Part shown: positions 1-63,239 of the stretch, piece after piece
Position numbering within the stretch: position 1 is the stretch's first letter
Layout: every line of letters begins with the position of its first letter
NCBI GenBank assembly: GCA_963753495.1
Contig: CAVWCO010000025.1
Coordinates: 320,223 to 384,222 of the forward strand
Direction of reading: 5' to 3'
Source: an uncultured Bacteroidales bacterium
GTDB lineage: Bacteria; Bacteroidota; Bacteroidia; Bacteroidales; VadinHA17
DNA length: 64,000 nucleotides
Program-made: the position numbers and the translations under genes
Notes under the pieces: generated by a model
Seen by the model: only the letters and a program-made list of their open reading frames with translations
Told to the model about the DNA's origin: nothing
The model's database searches: none

Positions 1-513
1 TCCTCGATACTCTCAGGATCATAACACCCGCAGTTTCCAAGTACTATCCGCTTCTGATTTGCAAAAAAAGGCAATTCGTTTATAAAGGAGATGCCGGGCC
101 AGAATTCAAATCCTTTGGAACCTGTCTGGCCCAGAAGATCATCTTCATTTATATCATTATGAAAAACACCGTTAAGAAGGGGCTCAACCTTTTCCTCGGT
201 TATGTTCCGGAAGAAAAGCTTGTTTTTACCCGGCATCTGAATACAGACCATTGGCTCATAGTTTGCAGGTCCGGAACACCCAACCCTTAACTGTGAGGGC
301 CGTTGGTTCATTCTCTTCAACATATAACTTTACCGCATTGAAAGTTTTATCAGAGCCCGCAATTATGCTGCTTGTGTTTGATGAAATATGGATCACAGGT
401 ACATTGGTTTTATCGCGACGCACCTGCTGCAATACCTTTTCAGTTTCGGACGGAAGGGTATCGGATTCAAATAACAGCACCTTATCAATAAGGAATGTCT
501 TTAAATCTTCCAT
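1..513 (-). CDS. NuoF-like NADH-binding subunit (HydB/HndC type) of a multimeric [FeFe]-hydrogenase or NADH dehydrogenase. Only the N-terminal region is present, including a thioredoxin-like-fold domain. The gene continues past the window start, and the frame breaks near 240-270.
   Basis: The reverse translation of 1..236 gives MPGKNKLFFRNITEEKVEPLL...FINELPFFANQKRIVLGNCGCYDPESIE. The RIVLxNCGxxDPESI box is characteristic of the region just before the NADH/FMN domain of NuoF-family proteins. ORF 256..513 (MEDLKTF...VKGWVFRTCKL) lies in an adjacent frame and resembles the N-terminal Trx-like domain of HndC-type proteins. However, the usual Cys positions read SSNTSS. Confidence 0.5.
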
Positions 514-516
514 TTA

Positions 517-946
517 ATCATTATCAATAATAAACTTAAGCTTCTTAATAAGGGCCGGAACCTGCTCGGCACGTATATGTATCTGGTATTCACCATTTAC
601 CATTATTACAGGGCCATGATAGCAGCCTCCAAGGCATGTGACGATATCAAAGCTGAAGTTCCCGTTCCTGTGTGGTTTGTCCCGGCGAGATTTTCAGCTC
701 CTCTTTGAATTTATCAATAATGGCCTGGGAGCCGTTCATAAAACACGAGGTGCCATGGCAGATTTTAAGATGAACCTTGCCTGAAGGAATGAATCTGAAC
801 TGGTCGTAAAATGTAGCCAGTCCGAATATTTTGGTTGTGCTCAGGCCAAGGTGGCCTCCCACTCTTACTATTGATTCTTCCGAAAGATATCCGTTTTCAG
901 CCTGTATCTCCTGTAACAGCGGGATAAGATCTTCCCGTCCGGCCAT
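517..946 (-). CDS. NuoE-like thioredoxin-like [2Fe-2S] subunit (HydC/HndA type). Two frames join near 660-665.
   Basis: ORF 647..946 carries a NuoE N-terminal region ending in CHGTSC...ISPGQTT. The continuation in the +1 frame (about 517..660) reads NGNFSFDIVTCLGGCYHGPVIMVNGEYQ, which is the second Cys pair of NuoE. Confidence 0.7.
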
Positions 947-1047
947 GTTTATACTTTTTAAGAATTAATATCGAGATCTGCTGCCATTACTAACCTAACT
1001 GATAATGCCAATACAAATATAATAATATTTATTGTTAATAAATAAAC

Positions 1048-1065
1048 ATTGTTATTTTATTAACA
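1048..1065. promoter_or_regulatory. Candidate Rex-type (redox-sensing repressor) operator TTGTTATTTTATTAACAA, in the divergent intergenic region between the two hydrogenase-related operons.
   Basis: The site is an 18-bp near-palindrome with one mismatch to the TTGTTAANNNNTTAACAA consensus reported for Rex in anaerobes. A second half-site, TTGTTAATAAA, lies at 1031-1041. Confidence 0.35.
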
Positions 1066-1160
1066 ATAAAACAAATTGCCATTATCTTCTGTCCTGTATT
1101 AAAAGACTTAAGAATATATTATTACATTTGAGATTGTATTGTTCCCTGATTAAAGTGGAA

Positions 1161-1415
1161 ATGACCCAAAGGATTGAAATGCAGATTTGTCTTGGCAGTT
1201 CCTGTTTTTCGAGAGGTAACAGGGATGTTGTTGCATTTATCAGGGAGTACCTCAAAAAGAATCACCTGGAGGACCGGATCATCTTTAAGGGAGCCAGATG
1301 CATGAACCTTTGCAGCAATGGTCCGAACCTCAGAATTAACGAAAGGATTATCGAAGGGGTCACTCTCTCGAAAATTGAAGATATCCTGGAAAAGGAATTT
1401 GGAAATATTAAATAG
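1161..1415 (+). CDS. Small thioredoxin-like [2Fe-2S] ferredoxin of the NuoE/HydC-like fold.
   Basis: MTQRIEMQICLGSSCFSRGN...KGARCMNLCSNGPNL shows a CxxxxC...CxxxC pattern and is about 84 aa. I placed the start at ATG 1161, because the upstream part of ORF 1032.. is AT-rich promoter sequence. Confidence 0.55.
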   Translation: MTQRIEMQICLGSSCFSRGNRDVVAFIREYLKKNHLEDRIIFKGARCMNLCSNGPNLRINERIIEGVTLSKIEDILEKEFGNIK

Positions 1416-1436
1416 AGAAACACTCCGGTAATCAAT

Positions 1437-3315
1437 ATGAATGACAGAAAACCTATCTTCTATATAAACGATCAGAAATGCAGGAATTCTTACTCCTGCG
1501 TCAGAGTGTGTCCGGTCAATGCCATTGAGGTCAGGGCACAGAAGGAACATCCTTACATAGTTCCTGGCAGATGTATAGGCTGCGGCTTATGCTTTATTGC
1601 ATGTACTCCTCGTGCTGTTGAATACCGCGATTCGAGGGAAGAGGCTAAAAAACTCCTGGCATCCGACAGAAAGACCGTTGCACTTGTTGCCCCCAGTATT
1701 GCCTCTGAATTTGACGATATAACAGACTACAGGAAATTTGTCGGAATGCTTCAGCCTTCTCGGTTTTGATTACGTTCATGAGAACTCTTTCGGGGTTGAT
1801 CTGATAGCTGCTGAATATGCAAAACTTTTCAATAAAGCCGAGGGCAAGTATTACATGACTGCCAATTGTCCTGCAATTGTCAAGCTTATCAGTAAATATC
1901 ATCCTGAGCTGGTACCGAATCTGGCTCCGCTTGTTTCGCCCATGATAGCAACAGCAATGGTGGTGAAAGAGATATATGGTGAAGAGGCTGCAACTATCTA
2001 TATCGGCCCATGCATTGATAATAAGGATGAGGCCCTTCTGTATCGCGATGGTAAACTTGTTGACAGAATCCTTACATTTATCGAGCTGCGGCAGCTGTTC
2101 GATGAATTCGATATTCAGGAAAGAGTAGCCAAAATGTCGGAATTTGATCCTCCTTACGGCCACTGGGGTGCTCTTTATCCTCTGCCAGCAGGGATCCTGC
2201 AGGCAGCAGGCATCAGGCGCGATATAGCTGTTAGCGGTGTAATAACTGCCGCAGGGAAAGAGGATGTATTTGAAGGAATAAACGATTTTGATAAATATAT
2301 TGATACTATCCATCATCATTTTAATTTTTTCTTCTGTCATGGATGTCTGCTGGGACCTGGAATGGAAAACCATAATGAGCGCTTCAGAAGAAGGGCCCTG
2401 GTGAGGCTTTATGCTGAAAAGAGAGTAAACAAGCTCGATAAGGTTCAGTGGCAGAAAGACATAGATAAATGGTCGAAACTCGATTTTTCCCGGACTTTTT
2501 TTCCCGATGATCAGAGGATACCGGAACCACCCGATGAAGCTGTCAATGAAGTACTTAAGATAATCGGAAGAGAAAATCCGGATCAGGAATTGGATTGCGG
2601 CGCCTGCGGATACCAGTCGTGCCGTCAGTTTGCTTCAACGGTTGCAAAAGGACTTGCTGTTCCGGAGATGTGCCATACTTACAACCTGCGGAATAAACAG
2701 GAGTACATAGAGACACTGAGGCAGACAAACAGGAAGCTGGCAGAAACCAAGAGGGCTCTCAAAGAGTCGGAAGAAATCGCAATGAGAGAAAAGGAAACTG
2801 CCCAGAGCGCCTCCGACATGTTGAACAACATGCTTGAAAAGCTCCCTACAGGGGTTGTGATAGTCGACAACAACCTGAAAATTCTTCATTCAAACCTCAG
2901 TTTTATAAATATTATAGGTGAAGATGCCAAAGCTATTTCAGACATCATTCCCGGACTTGCAGGTGCGGACCTGAAGACTCTGATGCCCTTCAACGTTTAT
3001 AATATGTTCACTTTTGTCCTCAAGGAGAACGAGCCGGTTGTAAGCAAGGACGTCCATTATGAGGAAAACATGCTTAACATTTCGATCTTTCCCATCAAGA
3101 AGAACAAGATGTGCGGTGCAATTATCCGTGATCTATATTCTCCTGAGGTTCAGGGCGAAGAGGTGACAAACAGGGTAAGTGAAGTTATCGATAAAAACCT
3201 TGAGATGGTCCAGAAGATAGGATTCCTTCTGGGTGAAGGCGCTTCTGAAACCGAGCAGATGCTAAACTCGATTATTGAATCATATAAAAAAAAATCCAAA
3301 GGAACAGCAAAATAA
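1437..3315 (+). CDS. Sensory-type [FeFe]-hydrogenase-like protein (HydS, group C-like). It has an N-terminal 2x[4Fe-4S] ferredoxin domain, an H-domain with degenerate L1/L2/L3 motifs, a Cx2Cx4Cx16C motif and a C-terminal PAS domain. There is a frame break near 1750.
   Basis: ORFs 1437..1769 and 1738..3315 are two frames of one protein. The motifs are CRNSYSCVRVCP and CIGCGLCFIACTP for the ferredoxin domain. The H-cluster loops read TANCP (against TSCCP), GPCIDNKDE (against MPCxxKxxE) and FFFCHGCLLGPG (against ExMACxxGCxxGG). The extra cluster motif is CGACGYQSCRQF...C. A PAS-like C-terminus follows. Confidence 0.65.
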
Positions 3316-3331
3316 CCACTAAGAATCTGCA

Positions 3332-4516
3332 GTGACCACCGATTTCTACATAGAAGTAAACAGCCAGCAAAAAAATCATGACGGAGAAAGGATTTGCGGG
3401 GATGTCTTCCTTTACAGGTATATAAAGGAAGAAGACAGGGTAATTGCAGTATTGTCGGATGGAATGGGGAGCGGCGTTAAAGCAAACATACTGGCCACTC
3501 TGACTGCCACAATGGCTATCAATTTCACCCGCGAACACAAGGAAGTCGACCGGATTGCAGAGATAATAATGAATACTCTTCCGGTATGCAGTGAAAGAAA
3601 AATCAGCTACTCAACATTTACCATAGTTGATATCGAAAGCAGCGGCCGGGCAAATATCCTCGAATATGATAATCCGTCAACGATAGTATTAAGGGGAAAA
3701 GAGATATTCGATCCCTCCTGGAAAAATGTGGTCCTCGATAAGGGTAAAAATGCCGGAAAGGTACTCAAATCATGTACTTTCATGCCTGAAAAGGAGGACA
3801 GGATAATCTTCTGCTCCGATGGCGTGGCGCAGAGCGGAATGGGAGGTGAAGAATACCCATTCGGCTGGGGAAGGGATAATGTTGCAACGTATGCATCGTC
3901 GCTCGTTAAAAGCGAGGCATCAATTTCTGCAATAATGCTCTCCGGGAAAATAGTCACGATGGCTCACAAGAACGATATCTATAAAGCAAAGGATGATATC
4001 AGCTGCGCAACAATTTATTTCCGGGAGCCCCGTAAACTACTGATCTGCACTGGTCCTCCGTATGAGAAGGATAAAGACAAGAATCTTGCGTCAAAGGTTA
4101 AAAATTACACGGGAAAAGTTATAATATCCGGCGGCACAACTGCAGATATTGTTGCACGGGAACTGAATAAGGCAATTATCGATGAGCTGATATTTGAAGA
4201 TCCCGAATTACCGCCTGAAAGCTTCATCGACGGTATCGATCTGGTGACAGAAGGGATTCTTACTCTTCAGAAAGTAAATGAGATACTGAAATCGTACAAT
4301 AACAGTGTAAGGCTCGGAAAGGGCCCTGCCGACAAAATAGTAAAGCTCATCATGGAAAGTGATGAGATCCACTTCATTATCGGCACAAAGATCAATGTTG
4401 CCCACCAGGATCCCAATCTTCCTGTTGACCTTGAAATCAGGAGAACGGTTGTGAAACGAATTGCCAGGCTGCTGGAGGAAAAGTGGCTTAAGAAAGTAAG
4501 CTTTGAGTATATCTGA
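3332..4516 (+). CDS. PP2C-family (SpoIIE/RsbU-like) serine phosphatase with an uncharacterised C-terminal alpha/beta domain.
   Basis: VIAVLSDGMGSGVKANILATL and FCSDGVAQSG are PP2C metal-binding boxes. The ORF is intact and 394 aa, uses a GTG start, and lies 16 bp after the HydS-like gene. Confidence 0.75.
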   Translation: MTTDFYIEVNSQQKNHDGERICGDVFLYRYIKEEDRVIAVLSDGMGSGVKANILATLTATMAINFTREHKEVDRIAEIIMNTLPVCSERKISYSTFTIVDIESSGRANILEYDNPSTIVLRGKEIFDPSWKNVVLDKGKNAGKVLKSCTFMPEKEDRIIFCSDGVAQSGMGGEEYPFGWGRDNVATYASSLVKSEASISAIMLSGKIVTMAHKNDIYKAKDDISCATIYFREPRKLLICTGPPYEKDKDKNLASKVKNYTGKVIISGGTTADIVARELNKAIIDELIFEDPELPPESFIDGIDLVTEGILTLQKVNEILKSYNNSVRLGKGPADKIVKLIMESDEIHFIIGTKINVAHQDPNLPVDLEIRRTVVKRIARLLEEKWLKKVSFEYI

Positions 4517-4552
4517 TTTAGGATTAGCAGTTTTGAGAAAGCAATAATCCAT

Positions 4553-4824
4553 TAACCGCAAAGCGCACAAAGTCATCGCAAAGTCACACACCCATCAATG
4601 AAATATGGGAACATCAATAAAAATAACTTTTAGTTACACAGAGTTCCACAGAGAAGTCACAGAGACACACAGAGTTAAGAAATCAATTCTCTGTGGATCT
4701 CTGTGAACCTCTGTGATTCTCTGTGTAAGTTCTTATATTAGTTATATAGAGTACTCTAAGTTAAATCCTTAAACATCACACCTTTGGGATCTTTGCGTAA
4801 ATCCTTTGCGAACTTTGCGGTTAA
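4553..4824. repeat. Nested compound hairpin repeat element. Outer arms of tandem CGCAAAG/CACAAAG units (4553-4590 and 4786-4824) enclose an inner hairpin of 4x tandem CACAGAG units (4634-4728).
   Basis: Read directly from the sequence. The left inner arm is TTACACAGAG TTCCACAGAG AAGTCACAGAG ACACACAGAG, the loop is ttaagaaatcaatt, and the right arm is CTCTGTGGAT CTCTGTGAAC CTCTGTGATT CTCTGTGTAA. The outer left arm TTAACCGCAAAGCGCACAAAGTCATCGCAAAG is mirrored by CTTTGCGTAAATCCTTTGCGAACTTTGCGGTTAA. The element sits between the convergent PP2C and NUDIX genes. Confidence 0.75.
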
Positions 4825-4857
4825 ACAAGGCTGAATCACTTACTCCATATTTATTTC

Positions 4858-5304
4858 TCAGCTGTATTCTTTCGTTTTTAAATAATCTAATACCCTATTG
4901 TATAAATGAGGCTGTATATCAGGATGGGTAAGGTTTTCAGGCAGTGAATCCATCATCTTCACTTCTGCAATTTCCGATATATCAGGTATCGGACCGAGTT
5001 TGGAAATATCGGCAAAATAGAGCCGTCCAAATCCGGTTTCACCATCCTTCAGTACTGAATATGTTGCCACGCATTCGATCTTAAAATCAACAGCACCCGT
5101 TTCTTCCGCCAGTTCCCTTTCTGCAGCTTCATCAGCAGTTTCGTTTTCCTCTATATGTCCTCCCGGAATTTCCCATGTATTACGCTTATGATGACGCACA
5201 TACAACCAGTTATGATTATATCTGGCAGCAATTACAGCATAAGTGAGTTTGATATCAGGAGTAAAAGAGGGATTATAGAATTTAACTTCAGTCATCTTTT
5301 TCAA
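4858..5304 (-). CDS. NUDIX hydrolase.
   Basis: The Nudix box is GGHIEENETADEAAERELAEETG (GX5EX7REUXEEXGU). The ORF is intact at 148 aa. Confidence 0.85.
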   Translation of the reverse strand: MKKMTEVKFYNPSFTPDIKLTYAVIAARYNHNWLYVRHHKRNTWEIPGGHIEENETADEAAERELAEETGAVDFKIECVATYSVLKDGETGFGRLYFADISKLGPIPDISEIAEVKMMDSLPENLTHPDIQPHLYNRVLDYLKTKEYS

Positions 5305-5378
5305 TTAAACCATCAGCTAATGTAGTGAATATCGCTGTAAATAATTATTAATTACATTTACCTTGTAAAATTCATAGA

Positions 5379-5475
5379 CTTTGTGAGTCCTTCGTGTAAA
5401 CCTTTGTGTGACTTTGTGGTAAAAAAGAATTTAACCACAAAGGATCTCAAAGGCTGTCACTAAGTAACACAAAGG
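5379..5475. repeat. Hairpin repeat element, CTTTGTG/CACAAAG variant, with 4 tandem units per arm.
   Basis: The left arm is CTTTGTGAGTCCTTCGTGTAAACCTTTGTGTGACTTTGTGG, the loop is taaaaaagaatttaa, and the right arm is CCACAAAGGATCTCAAAGGCTGTCACTAAGTAACACAAAGG. It lies in the divergent region between the NUDIX and metallophosphoesterase genes. Confidence 0.65.
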
Positions 5476-5533: not shown

Positions 5534-6712
5534 ATGGTACTTTTCTTCATTCTGATTACAACTGAAATACTGACACTCATTGTCATCAGCAACCATTTTT
5601 ACGACAAATCATGGATGCAGTATTATTTCATCGTTATCCTGAATACGGTATTAAGCATATGGCTCTGGATATTATGGTTTGAATATGTATCATACGACGG
5701 AATATTTGATACAGCTGAGCATCAATGGTTGTTTATGAATCTTACCGGGATGGTGTGTGCTGTGTTTGTTCCCAGGATTCTTCTGATCATCTTTCATTTC
5801 ACAGGATGGTTTTCCGGAAGAAAACAGGGAGTTCACAGAAGGGCGCTTACAAATGCAGGATTTATAATATATGCCATAATATTCCTGGTTATTGCCACCG
5901 GTACACTGTTCAGCCGGTTCAATTTCAAGACTGAAAATATCTCCGTTAAAATCAAAGGTTTAAAACAGGATCTTGATGGCCTGAAAATAGTCCAGATATC
6001 GGATCTTCACCTTGCTTCATTTTATCATCACCAGGAGCTTCTTGAAGAAGTGATGACAAAGATCAATGAACTTAAACCTGATATTCTCATCAATACCGGT
6101 GATTTTATAACCATAGGCTGGCGTGAATTCATCGGGTTTGATACAATCCTGGATAAAGCAAAAAGCAAGTATGGAAACTACGCAGTGATGGGTAACCATG
6201 ATTTCGGCACCTATAATCCCTACTTTACAGAGGCTGATCTGGATAATAATGTTCTGCTGATGAATAAGTTTATTGCTTCCTCAGGTTATCATGTCCTGAA
6301 CGATGAATCTGCCATGGTTAATATCAGGAATTCAAGGATTGCTGTGATTGGGGTAATGACCAGAGGTTCCTTCCCGGAAATTATCCATAGCGATCTGAGC
6401 AAGGCATACAGCGGAACCGACAGCGCTGATTTAAAGATACTTCTGGCGCACGATCCAAACCAGTGGGAAAAAGATGTGGAAGGAAAAACGGATATTGATA
6501 TCACTCTTTCAGGCCATACTCACGGAATGCAGATGGGCATCCTTACAAAAAGAGTGAAATGGAGCCCGGCGCGTCATTTTTATCCTAACTGGAACGGACT
6601 CTATAAGAGGGGTGAGCAATATCTGATCGTTAACCGTGGCCTTGGAGTGCTTGCCATACCGTTCAGGATATGGATGCCACCGGAGATTACAGTAATAACA
6701 CTTATCGATTAG
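5534..6712 (+). CDS. Membrane-anchored calcineurin-like metallophosphoesterase.
   Basis: An N-terminal hydrophobic region of several TM helices is followed by the motifs IVQISDLH, NTGDF, GNHDF and GHTHG. The ORF is intact at 392 aa. Confidence 0.8.
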   Translation: MVLFFILITTEILTLIVISNHFYDKSWMQYYFIVILNTVLSIWLWILWFEYVSYDGIFDTAEHQWLFMNLTGMVCAVFVPRILLIIFHFTGWFSGRKQGVHRRALTNAGFIIYAIIFLVIATGTLFSRFNFKTENISVKIKGLKQDLDGLKIVQISDLHLASFYHHQELLEEVMTKINELKPDILINTGDFITIGWREFIGFDTILDKAKSKYGNYAVMGNHDFGTYNPYFTEADLDNNVLLMNKFIASSGYHVLNDESAMVNIRNSRIAVIGVMTRGSFPEIIHSDLSKAYSGTDSADLKILLAHDPNQWEKDVEGKTDIDITLSGHTHGMQMGILTKRVKWSPARHFYPNWNGLYKRGEQYLIVNRGLGVLAIPFRIWMPPEITVITLID

Positions 6713-9223: not shown

Positions 9224-9242
9224 TGGCTAATAGATACTTTTT

Positions 9243-9330
9243 GTTACACAGAGGTCCACAGAGGATACACGGAGGTCCACAGAGCATTTCCTCGGTGGAA
9301 CTCTGTGACTTCTCTGTGATCTCTGTGTAA
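9243..9330. repeat. Hairpin repeat element, CACAGAG/CACGGAG variant, with 4 tandem units per arm.
   Basis: TTACACAGAG GTCCACAGAG GATACACGGAG GTCCACAGAG, loop catttcctcg, then GTGGAACTCTGTGAC TTCTCTGTGA TCTCTGTGTAA. It lies between the convergent YgjP-like and MBL genes. Confidence 0.7.
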
Positions 9331-9463
9331 GCTCTTGATTATAATTGTATTTACATCCCTCTTCTAAGGGGGAATTTATATAATATACTCCTGCCGCATT
9401 GCAGGTATCTGAATATTATTAAAACCTGATTCCTGAAGACGTGCTGAATATTTTACCTGTGTT

Positions 9464-10777
9464 TCATATTCCCCATGAACAAGAAAAGTATTTCTGAAGT
9501 TCGCTTTTATTCTGGCAGCTGAGAAAATCCATCATTTCATTGTAATCGCCGTGCCCACTGAATGAATCGATATTTTTTACTTCAGCATTTACCCTGTAAA
9601 CAGTACCGAAAATTGACACCTCTTTATCTCCTCTGGCGATCCTGGCTCCAAGTGTGACAGGTGAGCAATAACCTACAATCAGAATTGTATTTTGCGGATT
9701 TGAGATATTATTTGCAAGGTGATGCTTGATCCGGCCGGCTTCCATCATACCTGAAGCTGAAATAATAATGCATGGTTTTTTAGAGTCATTCAGCTTTTTG
9801 GAATCTTCCTGCCGCGTAATATAAGTCAGGCTGTTAAAGCCAAACGGATCGGAATCTGTTTCCATGACTTTTAATATCTCCTTATTGAAACATTCGGGAT
9901 GCATTCTGAAAATTGTGGTGGCGTTTACTGCCAGTGGACTGTCGACAAATATCTCAACCCTCGGAAGCTTTCCCTGGTTGAAGAATTTGTTAAGAGAATA
10001 AACGATCTCCTGTGTTCGCCCCACACTGAATGAAGGGATGATCAGCTTCCCTCCCTTATCAACACAGGTATGATTAACGGTTTTCAGCAACTCCTCATCA
10101 GCTGAAAACAGATCCTTATGTAATCTGTCGCCATAGGTCGATTCGGTAATGAGAAAATCAGCCTGCGGAAACGGTTTTGGAGGAGCGAGTATCCTGCTTG
10201 CCGGCCGGCCGATATCGCCGGTATAAGCCAGCCGTATGGTCGTGCCATTTTCCGTGACCAGCAAATTTGCCACTCCGCTGCCAAGCATATGTCCGGTGTT
10301 TGTAAACTTCACCTTTATTTTATCATCGATCCTGAAGTTCATATTATACGGAACACCAATAAAAAGAGCCATACCCTCTTTTGCATCTTCCTGGGTGAAA
10401 AGAGGTGTAACAAGAGGCAGTCCTTTCTTTGCCCGTCTCTTGTTGAAAGTCTTTGTATCATGTTCCTGAATATAGGCTGTGTCGGCAAGCATGATTGAAC
10501 AAAGATCGCGGGTGGCGTTTGAACAGACTATCGATCCTCTGAATCCCAGTTTGTAAACATATGGGATAAGTCCGGAATGATCAATATGAGCATGTGTAAG
10601 AATAATATGATCGACAAGGGAAGGATCGAAGCCAAGGTCCCTGTTCATCCCGTCTGTTTCAAGGCCTTTGCCCTGGAACATTCCGCAGTCAAAAAGGATC
10701 CTTTTCCCTGACTCAGTTGTTAAAAGAGTTTTACTTCCCGTTACCTCTCTGGCAGCTCCTAAAAATTTAAGTTTCAT
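9464..10777 (-). CDS. MBL-fold metallo-hydrolase with a beta-CASP RNA-metabolising domain (RNase J/CPSF-like).
   Basis: The HxHxDH motif ILTHAHIDHSG with downstream beta-CASP motifs. The ORF is intact at 437 aa. Confidence 0.8.
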   Translation of the reverse strand: MKLKFLGAAREVTGSKTLLTTESGKRILFDCGMFQGKGLETDGMNRDLGFDPSLVDHIILTHAHIDHSGLIPYVYKLGFRGSIVCSNATRDLCSIMLADTAYIQEHDTKTFNKRRAKKGLPLVTPLFTQEDAKEGMALFIGVPYNMNFRIDDKIKVKFTNTGHMLGSGVANLLVTENGTTIRLAYTGDIGRPASRILAPPKPFPQADFLITESTYGDRLHKDLFSADEELLKTVNHTCVDKGGKLIIPSFSVGRTQEIVYSLNKFFNQGKLPRVEIFVDSPLAVNATTIFRMHPECFNKEILKVMETDSDPFGFNSLTYITRQEDSKKLNDSKKPCIIISASGMMEAGRIKHHLANNISNPQNTILIVGYCSPVTLGARIARGDKEVSIFGTVYRVNAEVKNIDSFSGHGDYNEMMDFLSCQNKSELQKYFSCSWGI

Positions 10778-29070: not shown

Positions 29071-30380
29071 ATGCCTAAAGTTACAAAGGAAGATGCACTT
29101 CTCTATCACAGCAGAGGACGTCATGGTAAAATTGAGGTGATACCTACAAAACCTTACTGCACGCAGTACGATCTGAGTCTTGCATATACTCCGGGTGTGG
29201 CATATCCATGCCTGGAAATAGAAAAAACACCGGATGATGTTTACAATTATACTGCCAAGGGAAATCTTGTGGCGGTCATTTCAAACGGAACAGCAGTTCT
29301 GGGGCTTGGTGATATAGGTGCAATGGCAGGGAAGCCGGTAATGGAAGGCAAAGGCCTGCTTTTCAAGGTATTTGCAGATGTTGATGTATTTGATATTGAA
29401 GTTGATGAGAAGGATCCTGATAAGCTGGTTGAGATATGTGCCAGGATAGCTCCAACTTTCGGTGGCATAAATCTTGAAGATATAAAAGCTCCGGAATGTT
29501 TTGAGGTAGAGTCGAAACTGAAGAGAATGCTGGATATTCCGGTATTTCACGATGATCAGCATGGAACTGCAATAATTTCCGGAGCCGGACTTATTAAATT
29601 CACTTGAGATTACAGGAAGGAAGATTGAAAATCTAAAACTGGTTGTTTGCGGAGCAGGTGCTGCTGCCATTTCATGTTCAAGGCTCTATGTGTCGCTTGG
29701 AGTAAGGAAAGAGAATATTGTGATGGTCGACAGCAAAGGGGTAATCAACAGAAAAAGAAAGGACCTGAACAAATACAAGCAGGAATTCATTACCGACAGG
29801 GATATTGATACCCTTGCAGAAGCAGTTAAAGGTGCTGATCTTTTTCTTGGACTTTCGACAGCCAATATGATGTCGAAAGAGATGCTTGCATCGATGGCTG
29901 ACAATCCGATTGTATTTGCAATGGCAAATCCTAATCCGGAGATTACATATGAGGATGCAATGGCAACCAGGAATGACCTGATTTTTGCGACCGGAAGATC
30001 AGATTATCCGAATCAGATAAACAATGTTCTCGGATTTCCCTATATTTTCAGGGGTGCGCTCGATGTAAGGGCAACAACAATAAATGAAGAAATGAAGCTG
30101 GCTGCATCCAAAGCGCTTGCAGCACTTGCCAAAGAACCTGTTCCGGATTCAGTTCTGAAAGCCTATAATGTTGAAAGCTATGAGTTTCGGAAAGGATTAT
30201 ATTATTCCAAAACCCCTTGATCCGCGTCTGATTTCATGTGTGGCATCATGTGTTGCAAAGGCAGCTATTGATACAGGAGTTGCACGGCGTCCGATAACTG
30301 ACTGGGAGGCATACAGGAAGAGCCTTGATAAAAGGTTAAGCGTTCATATTAAAAAGGTCGGAGAACTAAGTGAGTTCTAA
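29071..30380 (+). CDS. NAD(P)-dependent malic enzyme, malic-enzyme domain only, split into 3 ORFs.
   Basis: [17 protein letters not shown] and the NAD-binding GAGAAA motif appear across 29071..29607, 29690..30220 and 30168..30380. Confidence 0.8.
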
Positions 30381-32897: not shown

Positions 32898-35283
32898 TCA
32901 TACACTGTTCATTTCCTCATGTTCCGTCCTGTTGATGATCTCATTCTGAAGATCTTCCCCAAGATCGTTGAAATAATCGCTGTATCCTGCAACCCTTACA
33001 ATCAGATCCCTGTATAATTCAGGATGCTTCTGTGCATCCTTCAGTGTTTCGGCATTGACAACATTGAACTGGATATGATGCCCATCGAGACTGAAATAGC
33101 TTCGGATAAGTGCAGTAAGACAATTATAGCTATCTTCATCTTCAAAAAACTGAGGTGAGAATTTCTGATTCAGAAGTGTTCCTCCTGTGCGAAGATGATC
33201 AATCTTTGAAGCTGATTTAATAACAGAAGTCGGTCCGTGATTGTCAACACCCTGAAATGGAGAAATCCCTTCCGAAAGAGGAGTGAATGCTTTTCTTCCG
33301 TCGGCAGTGGCTCCTGTAACACTTCCAAAATAAACATGAGATGTTGTCGGAAGCATATTAATCCGGTGAACTCCTCCCCTTGTATATGGCCTGCCGTTAA
33401 CTGCATCATAATAAATCTCAAAAACCGTAACAGCCTGCTGATCAGCATAATCATCATCATTACCATATTTGGGAGTATTATAAATCAGATCATATCTGCA
33501 TCTGTTCATATCCCTTAAAATCAGCATTCAAGAGCTTTATTAACTCATTCCAGCTGATATTTCTTCTTATCATAAATATTATACCTGATTGAAGTCAGCA
33601 TATCTGTAATACTCCCAAGACCGACTCCCTGAATATAAGAAGTATTATATCTTGCGCCTCCGTTGTTATAATCCTTGCCGTTCAGAATACAATCTTCAAC
33701 AAGCAGCGAAAGAAACGGAACAGGCAGCCATCTTGCAAAAGTCTTTTCAATTACATTATTCCCTCTTATTTTAATATCGGCAAAATAGTTAACCTGTGAT
33801 CTGAATGCTTCAATCAGATCATCAAAAGTTTTAAAATCAGCATGCATAACCTGTCTCCAGTCCGACCTGTTTGTTCTGTCCTCTTATCAAATCCGTTATT
33901 CAGGGTCAGTTCAAGAATTTTCGGAAGGTTGAAATAACCTGTAAGCCAGTATGCTTCAGTTCCGAAAGCTCCTGTTTCAACACATCCTGATGCTCCGCCG
34001 TTCCGGGCATCGACAATATTCTTACCCTGCCTGAGCAAGTTCCTGAATTATTGCATCAGTATTAAAGCATGATGGCTGTCCGAAGCCTGTCCTTATAATA
34101 TCAAGTGCCTTATGAATGAACCTGTCGGGACTTTTTTTGCTGATCTGAACCATTGAACTTGGCTGAAGTATCCTCATCTCCTTAATAACATCAAGAAGAA
34201 TATATGACATTTCATTAACAGCATCAGTTCCGTCAGGTTTAACTCCGCCAAGATTAATCAGACAGAAATCGGTATAAGTATTGCTTTCACTTGCAGTAAC
34301 TCCCATTTTAGGAGGAGAAGGATGGTTATTGAATTTAACCCAGAAACAACCAAGAAGATCATACAGTTCTTCATCTGAAAGAGTTCCTGCTTCCTTCTCT
34401 TTCTTATAAACAGGATAAAGATGCTGGTCAAGCCTTCCGGGATTGAAAGAATCCCATGGATTAAGTTCAGTTATGACACCCAGATGAATAAACCAGTAAT
34501 GCTGAAGCATTTCATGAACAGTTTCAGGAGCATGGGCAGGCACTTTCCGGCATACAGCAGCCATTTTCAAAAGTTCGTCTTCCTTGTTCGGATCGTTTCT
34601 CAGCAGCTGCAAGTCTTTCAAGTTCATCAGCATGCCGGTCTGCATACATTATAATTGCATCGCAGGCAATATCCATAGCCTTGAGTTCTTCAGACTTTTC
34701 AAAAGCTTCATTATCGTTAAAAAAATCAAGTCTTGAGATAGCTTTCCTTATTTCTTCCTTTAAGCTGAAGAAATCCTGTTTTGAACATTTTATAACCCAG
34801 AACAGTATGTCCCGGAGCCCGCTGTTCCTGGAATTCGGTGAAGATGCCGGCATTATAGGCATTAAGCCATTCAGGTGTCATAAGGCTCATTATCCTGTCG
34901 CGGTTGCTTTTTCCTTTCCAGAAAGGAATGATCTCTTCTTCATAAATCTTTCTTGACTTCATCATCAACTCTGAAAAATACTTTTTCCCTTGAATCAAGT
35001 ATTTCAAGATCCTTCAGTGAATGAAGGCTTATTTCGGGATAAGTAGGAGTCTCCTTTGGAGCAGGGCCTCTCTCTCCCACAATAAGTTCACCTTCATTAA
35101 TACATATCTTCTTGTTTTTCAGAAGATATTCAAATGCCTTTGCTCTTTTGACCGGAGCTGAAAATTCGCGGGCTTCATCGCTTTTATAAAATCGGGTGAT
35201 AAGCAAAGCCCTTTCGGCCTGATCTTTTCAACTGCATTAAGGCTCTGTTCCCTTAATTTTTTAACTCTTTCAGATAGTATCAT
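32898..35283 (-). pseudogene. Glycyl-radical enzyme of the PFL2/glycerol-dehydratase family (includes CutC-, HypD- and PD-dehydratase-like enzymes), broken into at least 7 ORFs.
   Basis: The glycyl-radical motif is RVAGYS (33000s). The catalytic loop is GGASGCVETG (33960s). FTEFQEQRAPGH and GFGQPSCFNTD are also present. The pieces are 34940..35206, 34726..35007, 34524..34862, 34022..34645, 33814..34038, 33545..33847 and 32898..33527. Confidence 0.7.
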
Positions 35284-36923: not shown

Positions 36924-39031
36924 ATGAAAAAAACTGTTCTTCTTATTGCAATTGTTACCATGGTATTAACTTCATGCAAACAAAAAGTGAAAAGTGATAA
37001 TCCGTTACTCAATGAATTTGAAACCCCATTCGGGGTTCCTCCGTTTGAACTTATAAAAGCTTCTCATTTTATGCCGGCATATCTGAAGGCTTTTGAAGAG
37101 CAGAAAAAAGAAGTACGTAAAATAATAACCAATAAACAGGCACCTGATTTTGAAAACACAATAAAAGCCCTTGAATACAGCAGTGAGCTCCTGACAAAAG
37201 TCAGCAGGGTCTTCGGTTCACTTAACTCAGCCAATACAAATGATTCATTACAGGCTATAAATCTGGAGATTGCACCTCTTTCATCAAAGCACAGGGACGA
37301 TATCAACCTGAATGACACACTTTTTCAGAAAGTTAAATCGGTTTATGAAAACAAGGATAATTTCAAGCTTACAGAAGAGGAACAGAAGGTGCTTGAAGAT
37401 ACATATAAAGGATTTGTAAGGAACGGGGCCGGGTTATCGCCGGAAGATAAGACCAAGCTCAGAAAGATAAACGAAGAGCTGTCGCTTCTCTCAGTGAAGT
37501 TCGGTCAGAATCTACTGGCTGAAACCAATGCTTTCAAACTGATTATTGATAAAGAGGAGGACCTGGCCGGATTGCCCGAAGGAGTTATTGCACAGGCAGC
37601 ATCAGCAGCTGAAAAAATGAATCTCAACGGGAAGTGGGTATTTACAATTCAGTATCCGATAATGGAACCATTCCTTAAGTATTCTGAAAAGCGTGAGCTG
37701 AGGGAAAAGCTCTTTACAGCATATTTCATGAAAGGAGATAATGGCAACGAAAAGGACAATAATGAAATTATATCCAGGATTGCAAAACTCAGGATTGAAA
37801 GATCTATACTTCTCGGATATAAAAGCTATTCGGATTTTGCCCTTGAAAGAACAATGGCAAAAACTCCTGAAAGGGTAATGGATTTCCTGGGTCAGGTTTG
37901 GAATGCGGCTTTGCCTGTTGCAAAAGCGGAAGCTTTGGCCCAGCAGGAACTTATTGATAGGGAGGGAGGTAAATTTCAAACTTCAGCCCTGGGACTGGTG
38001 GTATTACACCGAAAAGATCAAGAAGGAGAAGTATGCACTTGATGATGAGATGATCAGACCATATTTCAGGACGGAAAATGTTATTGATGGAATGTTTTAT
38101 GTCGCTAACCGGCTTTATAACCTCAGTTTTACAAAAAGGACCGATATCCCGAAATATCATCCGGATGTTGTCACATTTGAAGTGACCCGCGATAATGAGC
38201 ATGTAGGAATCCTGATGATAGATAACTACCCGCGTGCCTCAAAACGTGAACGGAGCATGGTGCGGAGCATACAGAGGGCAGAGCCGCGACATTAAAGGCA
38301 ATATGATTCATCCTGTGGTCACAATGGTTACAAACTCAACTCCCCCGACAGCCGACAAACCTTCACTTCTTACACCTGATGAAGCAAGCACTCTCTTTCA
38401 TGAGTTCGGACATGCGCTTCATCAGCTTCTTTCAAACTCAACTTACCCGGGCGTTTCAGGAACGTCTGTTGCGCGCGATTTTGTCGAGCTGCCCTCACAG
38501 ATAATGGAACACTGGGTGCTTGAACCGGAGGTGCTTAAGGTTTATGCAAAACACTATCAGACAGGAGAAATAATTCCGGCTGAAATAATTGAAAAACTTG
38601 ACAAAGCCGGAAAGTTCAATACAGGATTCACAACCGTCGAATTCCTGGCGGCTGCTCTCCTCGATATGGAATATCATATTCTGAATGAACCTGTTGATAT
38701 TAATATACGCGATTTCGAAAAGAAGGCAATGGAAAAATACGGACTTATGCCTGAAATCAAGCCAAGATACAGATCAACATACTTTAACCATATCTGGAGT
38801 TCAGGTTATGCCTCAGGCTATTACAGCTATTACTGGAGCGAAATGCTTGATGCTGATGCCTTCCAGGCGTTTAGGGAGACAGGCGATATTTTTAACAGGG
38901 AAGTTGCCGGCCGATTTGAAAAAGAGATCCTCTCAAGAGGAGGTTCAAGGGATCCACTTGACATGTATATCGCTTTCAGGGGAAAAGAACCCGGAATTGA
39001 CGCCCTGCTGGAAAACAGAGGTCTGAAATGA
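36924..39031 (+). CDS. M3-family peptidyl-dipeptidase Dcp / oligopeptidase A-like lipoprotein, split into 3 ORFs.
   Basis: Signal MKKTVLLIAIVTMVLTSCK. The HEXXH motif is HEFGHALH in 38234..39031. Pieces are 36924..38042, 37903..38295 and 38234..39031. Confidence 0.8.
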
Positions 39032-42980: not shown

Positions 42981-45900
42981 TTGGATATCGGTTCAGTTTC
43001 GCTTAACACGGTACTTTTAGATGAAAAATATAATGTCATTGAGGACTATTATGATTATGTTCATGGAAAACCATTCAATGTACTAAAGGAGAGGCTCACA
43101 TCAATTCTGAAAAATCATCCTTCCGGAACCATTACAGGAATTGCCGTTACCGGAACAGGCGGCAAACTTGCAACTGAACTTATCGGAGGAGTATTTGTAA
43201 ATGAGATAATTGCCCAGGCAACATCCACAGGCAGATTATATCCCGATGCTCAAACAGTTATTGAAATTGGAGGAGAAGATTCAAAACTTATAATTCTTGA
43301 AAAGGATCCTTCAAACGGGCATTCCCGACTGGTCGATTTTGAAATGAACAGTATCTGTGCTGCAGGAACAGGATCATTTCTTGATCAGCAGGCACGGAGG
43401 ATAGGAGTTCCGATTGAGAAGGAGTTTGGAGAAATGGCCATTGAAATCTGTTGATCCTCCCCGGATTGCAGGAAGGTGCAGTGTTTTTGCAAAGAGCGAT
43501 ATGATCCACCATCAGCAGATTAGCAACTCCCTTGCATGATATTGTTGCAGGATTATGTTTTGCACTTGCCCGTAATTTCAGAAGCAATGTGGCAAGAAGC
43601 AAGGAGATTAAGAAACCAGTAATTTTCTCAGGAGGTGTTGCAGCAAATATAGGAATGATCAGAGCCTTCAGGGAAGTTCTTGACCTGAATGAGGATGAAC
43701 TGATTATCCCGGAGCATCATGCCTCGATGGGTGCGATAGGAGCAGTAATGTATGCGCGTTCCAATAATCTTGAGATGAACCATTTCAAGGGGATGGAGAA
43801 GCTGGAAGAGTATCTTGCAGATGACTCAACAGCATTTCAATAGCCTCCCCCAGCTTAAAGAATCAGAGGCAGTCTACAATAAAGTAGTCCATTTTAGAAA
43901 GAATGGAAAAGAAAAGATCCATGTTTATCTTGGTATTGATGTAGGATCGCTGAGTACAAATGTTGTTCTTATCGATCCCGATCATAATGTAATTGCAAGG
44001 CGCTACCTGCCAACTGCAGGAAAACCCCTGGAAGCTATCCAGAAAGGGATGACTGAGATCTTATGATGAGGTTGGTGAAGCATGTTGAAGTTATCGGAGC
44101 AGGCACAACAGGATCAGGCAGGTACCTTACAGGCGATTTTATCGGTGCCGATACCATACAGAATGAGATAACAGCTCAGGCAACTGCTGCAATTGATTAT
44201 GATCCGACTGTTGACACAATTTTTGAAATCGGGGGACAGGATTCAAAATATATCAGCATTGAGAATGGTGTGGTTGTCGACTTTGAAATGAATAAAGTCT
44301 GTGCTGCAGGAACAGGATCATTCCTTGAAGAGCAGGCTGAAAAACTGAATATCAATATTGTTGATGAGTTCGGATGCATGGCACTTGAACTCAGAGTGCC
44401 CGGTAAAGCTGGGCGACAGGTGTACTGTTTTCATGGAATCGGACCTCAATTCATACATGCAGAAGGGTGCAAGGAATGAAAACCTTGTCGGAGGACTTGC
44501 TTATTCAATTGTTTATAACTATCTGCAGAAAGTTGTTGCTGACCGAAAAGTCGGAAACAAAATATTCTTCCAGGGAGGTGTTACAAACAATAAAGCTGTT
44601 GTTGCTGCATTTGAACAGGTTACTGGGAAAGAAAATAATCATTCCTCCGCATTTTGATGTTACCGGTGCTATCGGTGCAGCTATCCTTGCCCAGAAGATC
44701 AATGACAAAAGGGACAGAAAACCACATTTAAAGGTTTCGGAATCAGAAATGTAACATATGAAATCAGCAGGTTTTCATGCCAGAGCTGTGCCAACCATTG
44801 TGAGATCAGAAGAGTGAAAATTGCAGGGGAAAAGAAATCCCTGTTTTATGGCGGAAGGTGTGAAAAATATGAAACTGACGGCCGGAAAAAAATAGCGAAT
44901 AATATCCCGAACCTGTTCAACAAAAGAACAGAGATGCTGATGGAGGGATATCAGGAAAAACGAACCGGGAAAGACCCCACAATCGGTATCCCAAGGGCAC
45001 TGATGGTATTTTACCAGCAGTTCCCGTTCTGGCGTACATTTTTTGAAGAGCTCGGATTCAGGGTAGTAATTTCAAGAGAATCGGATAAAGTCACTTGTCA
45101 GTCAATCAATTGAGACAATGACAACCGAAACATGCCTTCCTGTGGAACTCATGCATGGTCATGTAATTGATCTTATTGAAAAAGGAGTTGATTATATCTT
45201 TCTTCCATTTATTGTAAATGCCAAATTCAGGGAAGGCAACAAGACATTCAACTGCAACTGCCCATGGATTCAGACTTATCCGTTTATGGTAAAGGCAGCG
45301 CTTAAAGGGAAGATTGATGAATCAAAACTGTTGATGCCGACACTTCATTTCAGATTTTTTGAGCGGGCTCTCGTAAAAGAGATGACTACTTATTTCAATG
45401 AAAAATTCGGGATAAGCAAGGAAGAGATTAAAAAAGCCATTTACAAAGCCGATGGAGTTCAGGTATCATTCGAAAAAAGTCTTGTGGAATACGGCAGGGA
45501 TGTTCTTAAAAAATATCCCTGAAAACTGCAGGCCGGTTGTCCTGCTTGGAAGACCCTATAACAGCACTGATCCGCATCTCAATCTTGGACTTGTTGAAAA
45601 GCTTATTACCCAGAATGTAATGCCTATCCCGATTGATATGCTCGACCTGACACCTTACAATATTTTTGAACAATTACAGGAATATGTACTGGCCAAATGG
45701 CCAGAAGATCATTGCAGCTGCCCAGCATGTGGCAAAAACAGATGGATTATATGCTGTTTATCTTAGCAATTTCCGGTGCGGACCCGATTCATTCATATGG
45801 CATTATGTAACTGAAGAGCTGAAAGGTAAGCCATTCCTTCATCTTGAGGTAGATGAACACTCTGCCGATGCCGGTATGGTAACACGTATCGAAGCATTCC

Positions 45901-62400: not shown

Positions 62401-63239
62401 TGTTCAGATTCGATTACTGTTTCCCTGTCGAGAATTACCTCATTTCTTTCAATTGAGACAACTTCACCGGTATCCTCATCAACAAAGTCCTCAACCCATG
62501 TTTTCAGAACCCTTGCTGCAAGTTTACGGCCAACAAGCTTTTTAATGTTTGTTTTTGATACCTTATGTTCTTCCGCAAGGTTGAAAATTTCGAGGATTTC
62601 CTTGTCACTCTCAAAACCGATAGCCCTTAGCAGTGTTGTTACCGGAAGCTTTTTCTTCCGGTCGATATATGCATACATCACATTATTGATGTCGGTTGCA
62701 AATTCGATCCAGGAACCTTTGAAGGGTATAATCCTGGCTGAATAGAGTTTGGTGCCGTTTGCATGGATGCTTTGTCCGAAGAATACACCGGGAGATCTGT
62801 GCAGCTGAGATACAACAACACGTTCTGCCCCGTTGATTACGAAAGTGCCTCTTTCGGTCATATAAGGCACTGTTCCGAGATATACATCCTGGATGACAGT
62901 ATCAAAATCCTCATGTTCAGGATCGGTGCAATAGAGTTTGAGCTTTGCTTTAAGAGGAACGCTGAATGTCAGTCCGCGTTCAATGCATTCTTCTATTGTA
63001 TAGCGGGGAGGGTCGATATAATAATCGAGAAATTCAAGAACAAAATTATTTCTTGTGTCGGTAATTGGAAAGTTTTCTGTAAAGACCTTAAAGAGTCCTT
63101 CTTTTTTCCTGTTTTCGGGAGTGGTCCCAAGCTGGAAAAATTCTCCGAACGATTTCAACTGAACTTCCAGAAAATCGGGGTAATCAAGCTGATTTTTCCT
63201 GGAAGCAAAACTAATTCTTTCAGTATTTTTTGAGGACAT
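59429..63239 (-). CDS. rpoB: DNA-directed RNA polymerase subunit beta, with a single 1-nt frame break near 60990.
   Basis: ORFs 60903..63239 and 59429..61090 overlap. The sequence ...KGQVL|[16 protein letters not shown]... is restored by removing one nucleotide in cttaacag. Confidence 0.95.

Follow-up and report, generated by a model that had tools for sequence, protein, structure and literature searches.

What is the role of a hydrogenase-like protein that has lost its proton path and is encoded between a small ferredoxin and a phosphatase? The question is raised by hydS, a gene in a 64,000-nucleotide stretch of DNA from an uncultured Bacteroidales bacterium (GenBank assembly GCA_963753495.1, contig CAVWCO010000025.1, positions 320,223 to 384,222 of the forward strand), which we analysed as a whole and call the window. 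A ferredoxin gene, hydS and a PP2C-type phosphatase gene follow one another between positions 1161 and 4516. These genes probably act as one unit, a putative H2-sensing or hydrogen-linked redox-sensing signalling module. The module is of an ordinary, already-described kind, made up of a small ferredoxin, a PAS sensor-type [FeFe]-hydrogenase and a PP2C phosphatase. Such modules go by the names hfsABC in Thermoanaerobacterium, HydS in Thermotoga and Ruminococcus, and BfuT in gene clusters of bifurcating hydrogenases. Its interest is modest and rests on a conserved, uncharacterised phosphatase domain and on unusual residues at the cofactor site. The genes of the module, and the single base that interrupts one of them, are as follows.

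1161..1415, forward strand: thioredoxin-like [2Fe-2S] ferredoxin gene, HfsA-like, 84 amino acids (aa) (Pfam 2Fe-2S_thioredx, E = 1.2e-9)
1437..3315, forward strand: hydS-like gene, 625 aa after removal of base 1753 (frames 1437..1769 in frame 3 and 1738..3315 in frame 1)
1753..1753, forward strand: single inserted A, CTTC[A]GCC, the cause of the frameshift (base missing from related contigs L001, L002 and L003)
3332..4516, forward strand: PP2C gene, 394 aa

The module is compact, and we treat its central gene as intact. An earlier sequence-only reading of this DNA gave the same coordinates, the same gaps (21 bp between the ferredoxin gene and hydS, 16 bp between hydS and the PP2C gene) and the same divergent NuoE-like and NuoF-like genes; the open reading frame (ORF) layout agrees on every point. 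That reading also had hydS spread over two frames. Both frames are present, but they reflect one inserted A and not biology. The 98%-identical contig L002 has this ORF unbroken, and the translation without A1753 shares 623 of 625 residues with it. The base is likewise missing from L001 and from L003, a 95%-identical contig of a metagenome-assembled genome (MAG; uncultured Bacteroidales MFD00032.bin.3.31). The protein is one ORF of 623-639 aa in each of more than 120 database clusters (identity ≥80%). Many other window genes are split in the same manner: rpoB (59429-63239) lies in two pieces, Peptidase_S46 and Peptidase_M3 in three pieces each, and malic enzyme and pyruvate formate-lyase are fragmented; besides rpoB, the stretches concerned are 49586-51750, 36924-39031, 29071-30220 and 32898-34645. 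Because relatives lack A1753 and so many window genes are split, rpoB included, we take hydS to be intact and its frameshift to be a presumed assembly error. The window comes from an error-prone, long-read-style metagenome assembly; broken ORFs here should therefore not be taken for pseudogenes or gene decay. L002 has frameshifts of its own, elsewhere (GH9).

HydS joins a hydrogenase-like core to redox and sensory modules, arranged along the gene as follows.

1461..1607, forward strand: N-terminal ferredoxin-like domain, residues 9-57 (Fer4 family matches)
1671..2427, forward strand: H-domain, residues about 79-330 (Fe_hyd_lg_C over 79-251, E = 2e-36)
2590..2673, forward strand: Cx2Cx4Cx16C motif, a putative extra [4Fe-4S] site, C387/C390/C395/C412 (Pfam FeS PF04060, E = 3.2e-9, residues 385-412)
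2674..2853, forward strand: long helical, coiled-coil-like linker (AlphaFold, single helix over fragment residues 39-94)
2854..3132, forward strand: PAS fold, residues about 473-565 (AlphaFold topology and Foldseek)
3154..3300, forward strand: C-terminal helical segment (VIDKNLEMVQKIGFLLGEGASETEQMLNSII), of low AlphaFold model confidence

The H-domain keeps its ligand cysteines and has lost most of its proton path. Its matches among solved structures include T. maritima HydA (TmHydA, E = 2e-20) and CpI (1e-16), and HMMER alignments to these two proteins gave the equivalences in motifs L1 and L2. In L1, T141-A142-N143-C144-P145 aligns with TSCCP and puts Asn143 at CpI C299, which bears out the earlier statement that TSCCP had become TANCP with loss of the cysteine. 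That statement also located the lost proton-path serine in TSCCP, which was mistaken; the proper residue is CpI S319, Ala163 here. At the remaining path positions, E282 is replaced by Lys129 and R286 by Lys133, and E279 is kept as Glu126. In L2, G190-P191-C192-I-D-N195-K196-D-E198 aligns with MPCTSKKFE and places Gly190 at M353. A 35-sequence family alignment shows L3 to read N296-F-F-F-C300-H-G-C303, with Asn at E495, Phe at M497 and two residues between its cysteines (Cx2C), where CpI and classical HydS proteins have Cx3C. The four H-cluster cysteine positions first proposed are present as C144, C192, C300 and C303, which are invariant in the Bacteroidota clade down to 36% identity, but the third motif does not have the expected spacing. 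The APS motif (A85-P86-S87) is also conserved, as are K196 and E198. Binding of an H-cluster by HydS is predicted from its sequence.

The N-terminal domain departs from its first description as a 2x[4Fe-4S] ferredoxin domain. The Fer4 matches at the N-terminus agree with that description, but the domain has seven cysteines (C15, C21, C25 and C46, C49, C52, C56) and not eight. Its motif 1 reads C15-R-N-S18-Y-S-C21-V-R-V-C25-P, with Ser18 in place of the second cysteine, and the pattern CRN-SY-SCVRVCP recurs in 111 of 120 close homologues, as opposed to CxDCYKCVRxCP in classical HydS. By analogy with 7Fe ferredoxins, such a domain may hold a 3Fe-4S or a serine-ligated cluster.

The C-terminal region has the Fe-S motif and the PAS domain that had been read from the sequence. 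The Cx2Cx4Cx16C motif is exact (C387-x2-C390-x4-C395-x16-C412), matches the Pfam FeS family and has four cysteines that are invariant in the family alignment. The linker behind it holds an insertion of ~40 aa that aligns with a gap in all classical HydS sequences. At the default Pfam threshold no PAS family was found in the full protein; the C-terminal 210 residues alone gave sub-threshold matches to PAS_8 (0.007), PAS (0.02) and PAS_9 (0.09), and 19 of the 35 aligned homologues match PAS_8, with a best E of 8.7e-8. An AlphaFold model of residues 375-625 has an overall pLDDT of 62, rising to 70-79 in the PAS part, and runs from a 56-residue helix through two strands, four short helices and three strands to two helices. 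The best 50 Foldseek matches of this model in the PDB are all PAS domains (Aer2, PYP, LOV, FixL and ThkA among them), at E = 1e-4 to 4e-3. Behind the PAS domain, the C-terminal helical segment is the best-conserved part of the C-terminal region after the Fe-S motif, with N587, V591, Q592, G599 and E600 nearly invariant across classical and Bacteroidota HydS types.

[quoted passage not shown] Group C enzymes (M2f) have two N-terminal cluster motifs, Cx2Cx4Cx16C and PAS, have lost C299 and the proton path, and are altered at M353 and M497 (PMC8163306, PMC10055695). The substitutions found here, C299N, S319A, E282K, M353G and M497F, agree with those of sensory enzymes (PMC10055695, PMC8163306). 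At the C299 position the published survey lists Ala in 43%, Cys in 17%, Pro in 10% and Ser in 10% of sequences (PMC8163306, PMC10055695), and the Asn of the window protein falls in its unlisted minority. HydDB calls subgroup C3 'phosphatase-linked' (PMC5037454), and the trait of an adjoining Ser/Thr PP2C phosphatase gene is found here, where the PP2C gene begins 16 bp 3' of hydS. The best NCBIfam match, FeFe_hydrog_B1 (monomeric), reaches 145 bits against a cut-off of 450, and every curated model of a catalytic group scores far below threshold.

HydS belongs to a divergent Bacteroidales subclade of this otherwise known group. An exhaustive profile-free search gave 4165 cluster representatives; a protein search with a broad family alignment returned only further close Bacteroidales sequences and no added diversity. 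We sorted the family into three kinds by C-terminal content and L3 motif. Classical PAS-type proteins have about 560-600 aa, an L1 that is mostly SSACP and the L3 motif ELLACxGGC. Histidine kinase-fused proteins have about 590-840 aa (mostly 650-710) and an L3 of Cx2C. Bacteroidota PAS-type proteins, to which the window protein belongs, have 616-625 aa and again Cx2C. In a neighbour-joining tree computed from the alignment columns of the N-terminal part and the H-domain, without bootstraps and with star-like deep branches, the window clade stands beside the kinase-fused sequence P0250 and with the kinase-fused branch; it falls outside the clade of classical PAS proteins, and the HydA outgroup is far away. 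In at least 556 genomes a relative turned up when one genome per species was scanned; the best 80 all come from uncultured Bacteroidales, Rikenellaceae or Bacteroidota MAGs, with identities of 70-99%.

Three sister lineages, represented by P0242, P0251 and P0258, have lost the ligand cysteines at the positions that their sequences cover. In P0242 the H-cluster motifs read ASNDP, GPD and FYGN-SL, and in both P0242 and P0251 the PAS module is retained, together with the Fe-S motif of the C-terminal region. This pattern suggests that these lineages are sensors that may work without any H-cluster.

The ferredoxin/HydS/PP2C triad is an old conserved unit that extends from Bacteroidales to distant classical loci. 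We compared gene order in 82 Bacteroidales loci and in a classical set of 80 metagenomic HydS loci. Among the Bacteroidales loci, a PP2C gene with the C-terminal domain lies directly 3' of hydS in 80 of 82, the two exceptions being contig ends, and a ferredoxin gene lies directly 5' in 81 of 82. In the classical set, a PP2C gene of about 390-400 aa is directly 3' in 75 of 80 loci, and a small 2Fe-2S ferredoxin gene is directly 5' in 64 of the 71 whose sequence reaches far enough. The claim that HydS genes characteristically adjoin a PP2C gene therefore holds, with PP2C directly 3' of hydS at 80 of 80 Bacteroidales loci that extend past hydS and 75 of 80 classical ones. The ferredoxin of the window has the cysteine pattern C-x4-C ... 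C-x3-C, and its 84-aa orthologue is called in both L001 and L002. The hydrogenase genes are a less constant companion: divergent nuoE, nuoF and hydA adjoin the hydS module in about 73-76 of the 82 Bacteroidales loci, several loci (L004, L007, L009, L011) have the triad without adjacent hydABC, and in the classical loci a NuoF-like gene was detected in 13 of 80 and a HydA-like gene in 18 of 80.

The phosphatase consists of two domains, and both are conserved with the triad.

3332..4021, forward strand: PP2C/SpoIIE-type domain, RsbX-like, residues 1-230 (Pfam SpoIIE, E = 5.7e-9)
4022..4516, forward strand: Rossmann-like C-terminal domain of the phosphatase, residues 231-394, 164 aa (no Pfam family)

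The best sequence match of the phosphatase in the PDB is B. subtilis RsbX (E = 4.8e-4), over CGDxF and DGxGSG. Residues D24, D43, D163, D221 and D222, which we take to be the metal-binding aspartates, are kept in ≥90% of an alignment of 63 classical homologues plus the window sequence. The sequence-only reading had noted an unassigned 150-aa C-terminal domain. It is indeed without assignment: Pfam gave only isolated, weak single-member matches (best E = 0.006), and PDB profile searches, a diverse 12-sequence profile included, returned nothing credible (best E 0.31 and 0.8). The domain is 164 aa long and family-wide rather than local. All 63 full-length classical PP2Cs are homologous to the window protein over about residues 3-394 (E = 1e-91 to 1e-158), and median identity to the window phosphatase in classical loci is 44% for the PP2C domain and 45% for the C-terminal domain. 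The latter is a hallmark of HydS-linked phosphatases and no peculiarity of this genome. Its family-wide invariant motifs, (C/S)GGTT, TEG, GTxxNxAHQDP and RR, would sit at loop positions typical of ligand-binding sites, and it may integrate a second signal, as a ligand-binding or docking domain of a kind not yet described. As part of the conserved triad, it suggests itself as a candidate for the signalling interface that is still missing. Neither a STAS protein nor an anti-sigma kinase was found among the window ORFs scanned, a scan that was not exhaustive, in line with the earlier statement that the window holds no such partner. Clustering found no conserved kinase or STAS gene 3' of the phosphatase in classical loci, where it was noisy and GC-rich contigs gave spurious ORFs.

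The module shares a divergent promoter with a hydrogenase operon, of which the window holds one end.

1..513, reverse strand: NuoF-like (HydB) gene, 5' part, with a frameshift near 287, running off the window start
514..991, reverse strand: NuoE-like (HydC) gene with several single-base indels (the intact L002 orthologue has 149 aa and PF01257)
1028..1070, no strand: near-perfect conserved palindrome in the divergent promoter, kept in 73 of 82 loci

The divergent partner had been presumed to be a bifurcating hydrogenase; related contigs L001 and L002 carry it whole, as a trimeric NuoE/NuoF/HydA operon. The NuoF-like orthologue in L002 has 644 aa with Complex1_51K and NADH_4Fe-4S domains, and relative to L002 the nuoE-like and nuoF-like genes of the window have single-base indels each. 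The right half of the palindrome, ATTGTTATTTTATTAACAAT (1048-1067), fits the Thermoanaerobacter Rex motif ATTGTTAN6TAACAAT exactly (motif: PMC5886521) and is a perfect predicted Rex operator. It is the only match to this motif in the 64-kb window, and a weaker, half-matching second site adjoins it inside the palindrome. A Rex site has also been predicted upstream of hfsABCD (PMC5886521). A scan of 900-5400 for promoter and terminator consensus sequences found such sites no more often than in shuffled sequence, the consensus used not being that of Bacteroidota.

Outside the window, L001 has a frameshifted rex-like gene (264-999, reverse strand) with a winged-helix N-terminus and a CoA_binding Rossmann domain; it closes the cluster of hydrogenase and sensor genes at its far end. 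Between its nuoE-like and ferredoxin genes L001 also has a ~450-bp insertion (about 9240-9700), lacking in the window and in L002. The insertion contains inverted segments as well as short repeats of CTTTTGT/CTTTTAT type, resembles a small inserted element and leaves the Rex palindrome untouched.

Related contigs carry a second hydrogenase-like sensor, fused to HisKA/HATPase, 3' of hydA (L002 1452-3413, reverse strand). It follows hydABC in roughly three quarters of the 82 loci (L002 and about 58 others). Its motifs are SSDCP, GPCVAKKAE and ELLCCEGC, with Asp at the C299 position, reportedly the one replacement there after which group A enzymes stay active. A receiver and a hybrid kinase follow the kinase-fused sensor; detection of the receiver protein extends to 59 Bacteroidales loci. 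The presumably catalytic, trimeric-type HydA (L002 3521-5242, reverse strand), examined in 68 Bacteroidales loci, has an L1 of [ST]ACP (C299 to Ala), an L2 of TPCxAMK[FY]E (M353 to Thr, Lys358 to Met) and a canonical L3 of ExMxCxGGC. Its L2 lysine stands four residues after the cysteine (C+4) rather than three (C+3) in these 68 loci. Its L1 and L2 residues are unexpected for an active group A enzyme.

How might the three proteins work together? H2, or the electron pressure that it reflects, would change the redox state of the H-domain cofactor, with the small 2Fe-2S ferredoxin as a likely redox partner or reference. Turnover of the H-domain would be slow because the canonical proton path is disabled (C299N, S319A, E282K). 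The C-terminal Fe-S site, followed by the coiled coil and then the PAS domain, may relay the signal onward to the phosphatase. The RsbX-like PP2C would then alter Ser/Thr phosphorylation of a target encoded elsewhere, and the changed phosphorylation would adjust expression of hydrogenase or fermentation genes. This route would run in parallel to Rex, which responds to NADH/NAD+, and to the kinase-fused sensor just beyond the window in related contigs.

Several observations weigh against this sensing module as drawn. The main doubt is whether this subclade has a normal [2Fe] subsite, given Asn195 and the Cx2C spacing. Lys358 of CpI holds the distal cyanide ligand; its equivalent here is Asn195, with Lys196 as the next residue. 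The position is N, A, S or T in 120 of 120 close homologues, always followed by that lysine, whereas Lys-Lys is mostly retained at this site in classical and kinase-fused relatives. In general terms, sensory enzymes keep the residues that form hydrogen bonds around the [2Fe] cofactor (PMC10055695). L3 combines its Cx2C spacing with Asn and Phe in place of E495 and M497, and the first ferredoxin motif has only three cysteines. On the output side, neither the window ORFs scanned nor the conserved neighbourhood offered a STAS or kinase substrate for the phosphatase. The likeliest relay, in which the conserved C-terminal helices of HydS would touch the Rossmann-like domain of the phosphatase, is purely conjectural. 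[quoted passage not shown]

The cofactor-site changes lend support to the idea that HydS binds only the [4Fe-4S] part of the H-cluster, like Nar1/NARF, and reports the state of ferredoxin or NADH through the same PAS-PP2C output. The loss of Lys358 to a position that varies among N, A, S and T, the Cx2C of L3 with E495 and M497 replaced, and the sister lineages P0242, P0251 and P0258, which lack the ligand cysteines covered and of which the first two still have the Fe-S motif and PAS, all fit such a redox or iron-sulfur sensor; so do the dedicated 2Fe-2S ferredoxin and a Rex box that ties the locus to redox control. We nevertheless consider it unlikely, with the four cysteines, APS, K196 and E198 conserved and the module tightly linked to hydrogenase operons. 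Moreover, the HydA of the same genomes also has its lysine at C+4, a pattern perhaps tolerated in this lineage, which weakens the argument for a dead site in HydS. A broader version, in which the Asn at C299, the loss of Lys358, Cx2C, the seven-cysteine domain and the coiled coil mark a redox sensor with a non-canonical or [4Fe-4S]-only cofactor site and, separately, the C-terminal domain of the phosphatase integrates a second signal, seems slightly less likely again. It is quite improbable that HydS is instead a fourth, regulatory 'T' subunit attached to HydABC, tuning enzyme activity rather than gene expression. The name BfuT and its drawing as a subunit, in PMC11406978, speak for it, as does its position next to hydC in about 90% of Bacteroidales loci. 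Yet the triad also occurs away from hydABC (in L004, L007, L009 and L011, and in the many classical loci without a detected NuoF-like or HydA-like gene), its constant partner is a phosphatase, a signalling enzyme, and the solved HydABC structures 7p5h and 8a6t are not known to include such a subunit.

The remaining alternatives carry little weight. A true pseudogene in this strain, or programmed frameshifting, would leave the module dead or unusually expressed, and the break in hydS at 1753 together with the broken nuoE-like and nuoF-like genes next to it would fit. We regard this as very improbable: essential rpoB is split likewise, as are Peptidase_S46, Peptidase_M3, malic enzyme and pyruvate formate-lyase; L002 carries different frameshifts; A1753 is a lone base lacking in three relatives; and apart from this indel hydS has no lesion and matches the intact gene at 623 of 625 residues. 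A catalytic role for HydS, as a group A or B hydrogenase that evolves or consumes H2, is close to negligible in probability. H-domain homology and the best NCBIfam match, FeFe_hydrog_B1, point that way, yet the match falls short at 145 against 450 bits, as do all catalytic-group models; the proton path is gone at C299, S319 and E282; a PAS domain, an extra Fe-S motif and a PP2C partner are all present; and the tree groups HydS with sensor-type sequences, far from HydA. The H2-sensing or hydrogen-linked redox-sensing module remains the probable reading.

It has been proposed that fermenters use sensory [FeFe]-hydrogenases to adjust their choice of hydrogenase and fermentation route to the pressure of H2. 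Alone, this locus adds little to that proposal; the comparative work gives testable points. The ferredoxin/HydS/PP2C triad is conserved across phyla as a unit to which the phosphatase's C-terminal domain also belongs. The Bacteroidales clade, present in at least 556 species-level genomes and deviating at Lys358 and in L3 spacing, is a natural variant useful for spectroscopy. Three inputs also appear to meet at the locus: the Rex box and two sensors, one PAS-type and one kinase-type.

Further genes lie beyond the phosphatase. A convergent NUDIX hydrolase gene (4858-5304, reverse strand) comes next and is found in 70 of 82 Bacteroidales loci, and a gene for a membrane-anchored calcineurin-like phosphoesterase (5534-6712, forward strand) is found in 66 of 82. 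Both also occur in loci without adjacent hydABC. This neighbourhood could reflect a functional link or merely the conserved gene order of relatives. Farther along the window, fragments of a BcrAD_BadFG ATPase and of DUF2229 (CoA-enzyme activase type) lie in a row at 42981-45522 on the forward strand; indel errors of the same sort have probably broken up one or two activase genes here.

The closest known counterparts are sensory enzymes of the TmHydS type, compared here through published residue identities and unnamed sequences of the same type. They share the N-terminal ferredoxin domain, the H-domain, Cx2Cx4Cx16C and the C-terminal PAS domain, and likewise lack Cys at C299, have Gly at M353 and miss the group A proton path (PMC10055695, PMC8163306). 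Sequences of this type are about 30-35% identical to the window protein, which has Asn at position 299 where TmHydS has Ala131 and Phe at position 497 where TmHydS has Ser267. The window protein further differs in its Cx2C (theirs is Cx3C), its loss of Lys358, its seven N-terminal cysteines (theirs are eight) and ~40 aa of extra coiled coil before the PAS domain. Group D enzymes are alike in their N-terminal clusters, Cx2Cx4Cx16C, loss of C299 and putative sensory role (PMC8163306), but lack PAS (PMC8163306, PMC10407848) and typically have Ser or Thr at the M353 equivalent, where the window protein has Gly.

Known signalling partners resemble the module in part. RsbX/RsbU-type phosphatases are minimal SpoIIE-family PP2Cs with the same conserved metal-binding Asp; they lack the Rossmann-like C-terminal domain (~165 aa) of the window phosphatase, near whose gene no STAS or anti-sigma kinase gene was found. 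The regulatory [NiFe]-hydrogenase system HoxBC-HoxJ-HoxA of Cupriavidus necator also joins a slow hydrogenase and a PAS partner to control of hydrogenase genes (PMC5707799, PMC8163306). Its metal site and protein family are unrelated, however, and its output runs through a histidine kinase and response regulator where the module here has a Ser/Thr phosphatase. Nearer in kind, the sensory enzyme of R. albus has an H-cluster subunit with PAS and a putative Ser/Thr phosphatase subunit, and is co-regulated with H2 (PMC6776011).

Gene order brings the module closest to the hfs genes of Thermoanaerobacterium saccharolyticum, a host of another phylum than that of the window, for which we compare the Hfs proteins by description. 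Shaw et al. reportedly described there, in 2009, hfsA as a small Fe-S protein, hfsB as a PAS hydrogenase and hfsC as a PP2C; this hfsABC order is that of the three genes in the window. The match is to hfsABC and does not extend to hfsD, for neither the window nor the other Bacteroidales loci have an hfsD-like kinase gene 3' of the phosphatase. HfsB has a PAS domain and is homologous to HydS of R. albus, and deletions of hfsA/B and of hfsC/D give different regulatory phenotypes, pointing to a regulatory rather than catalytic role (PMC5707799).

Within Bacteroidota, a hydABC operon flanked by two sensory hydrogenase genes was already known in 2024 (PMC11406978). In that paper BfuT denotes group C3 proteins with a PAS or histidine-kinase domain; the phosphatase and its C-terminal domain, the ferredoxin and the active-site deviations are not taken up in the part on which we draw. 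Perlabentimonas gracilis, Tenuifilum thalassicum and Williamwhitmania taraxaci are described there as having two bfuT genes, the first upstream of bfuC and the second downstream of bfuA. This sub-type V BfuABC/HydABC layout, with a PAS-type sensor upstream of the NuoE-like gene and a histidine-kinase-type sensor downstream of hydA, is the one seen in L001, L002 and L003, and in as much of the operon as the window holds.

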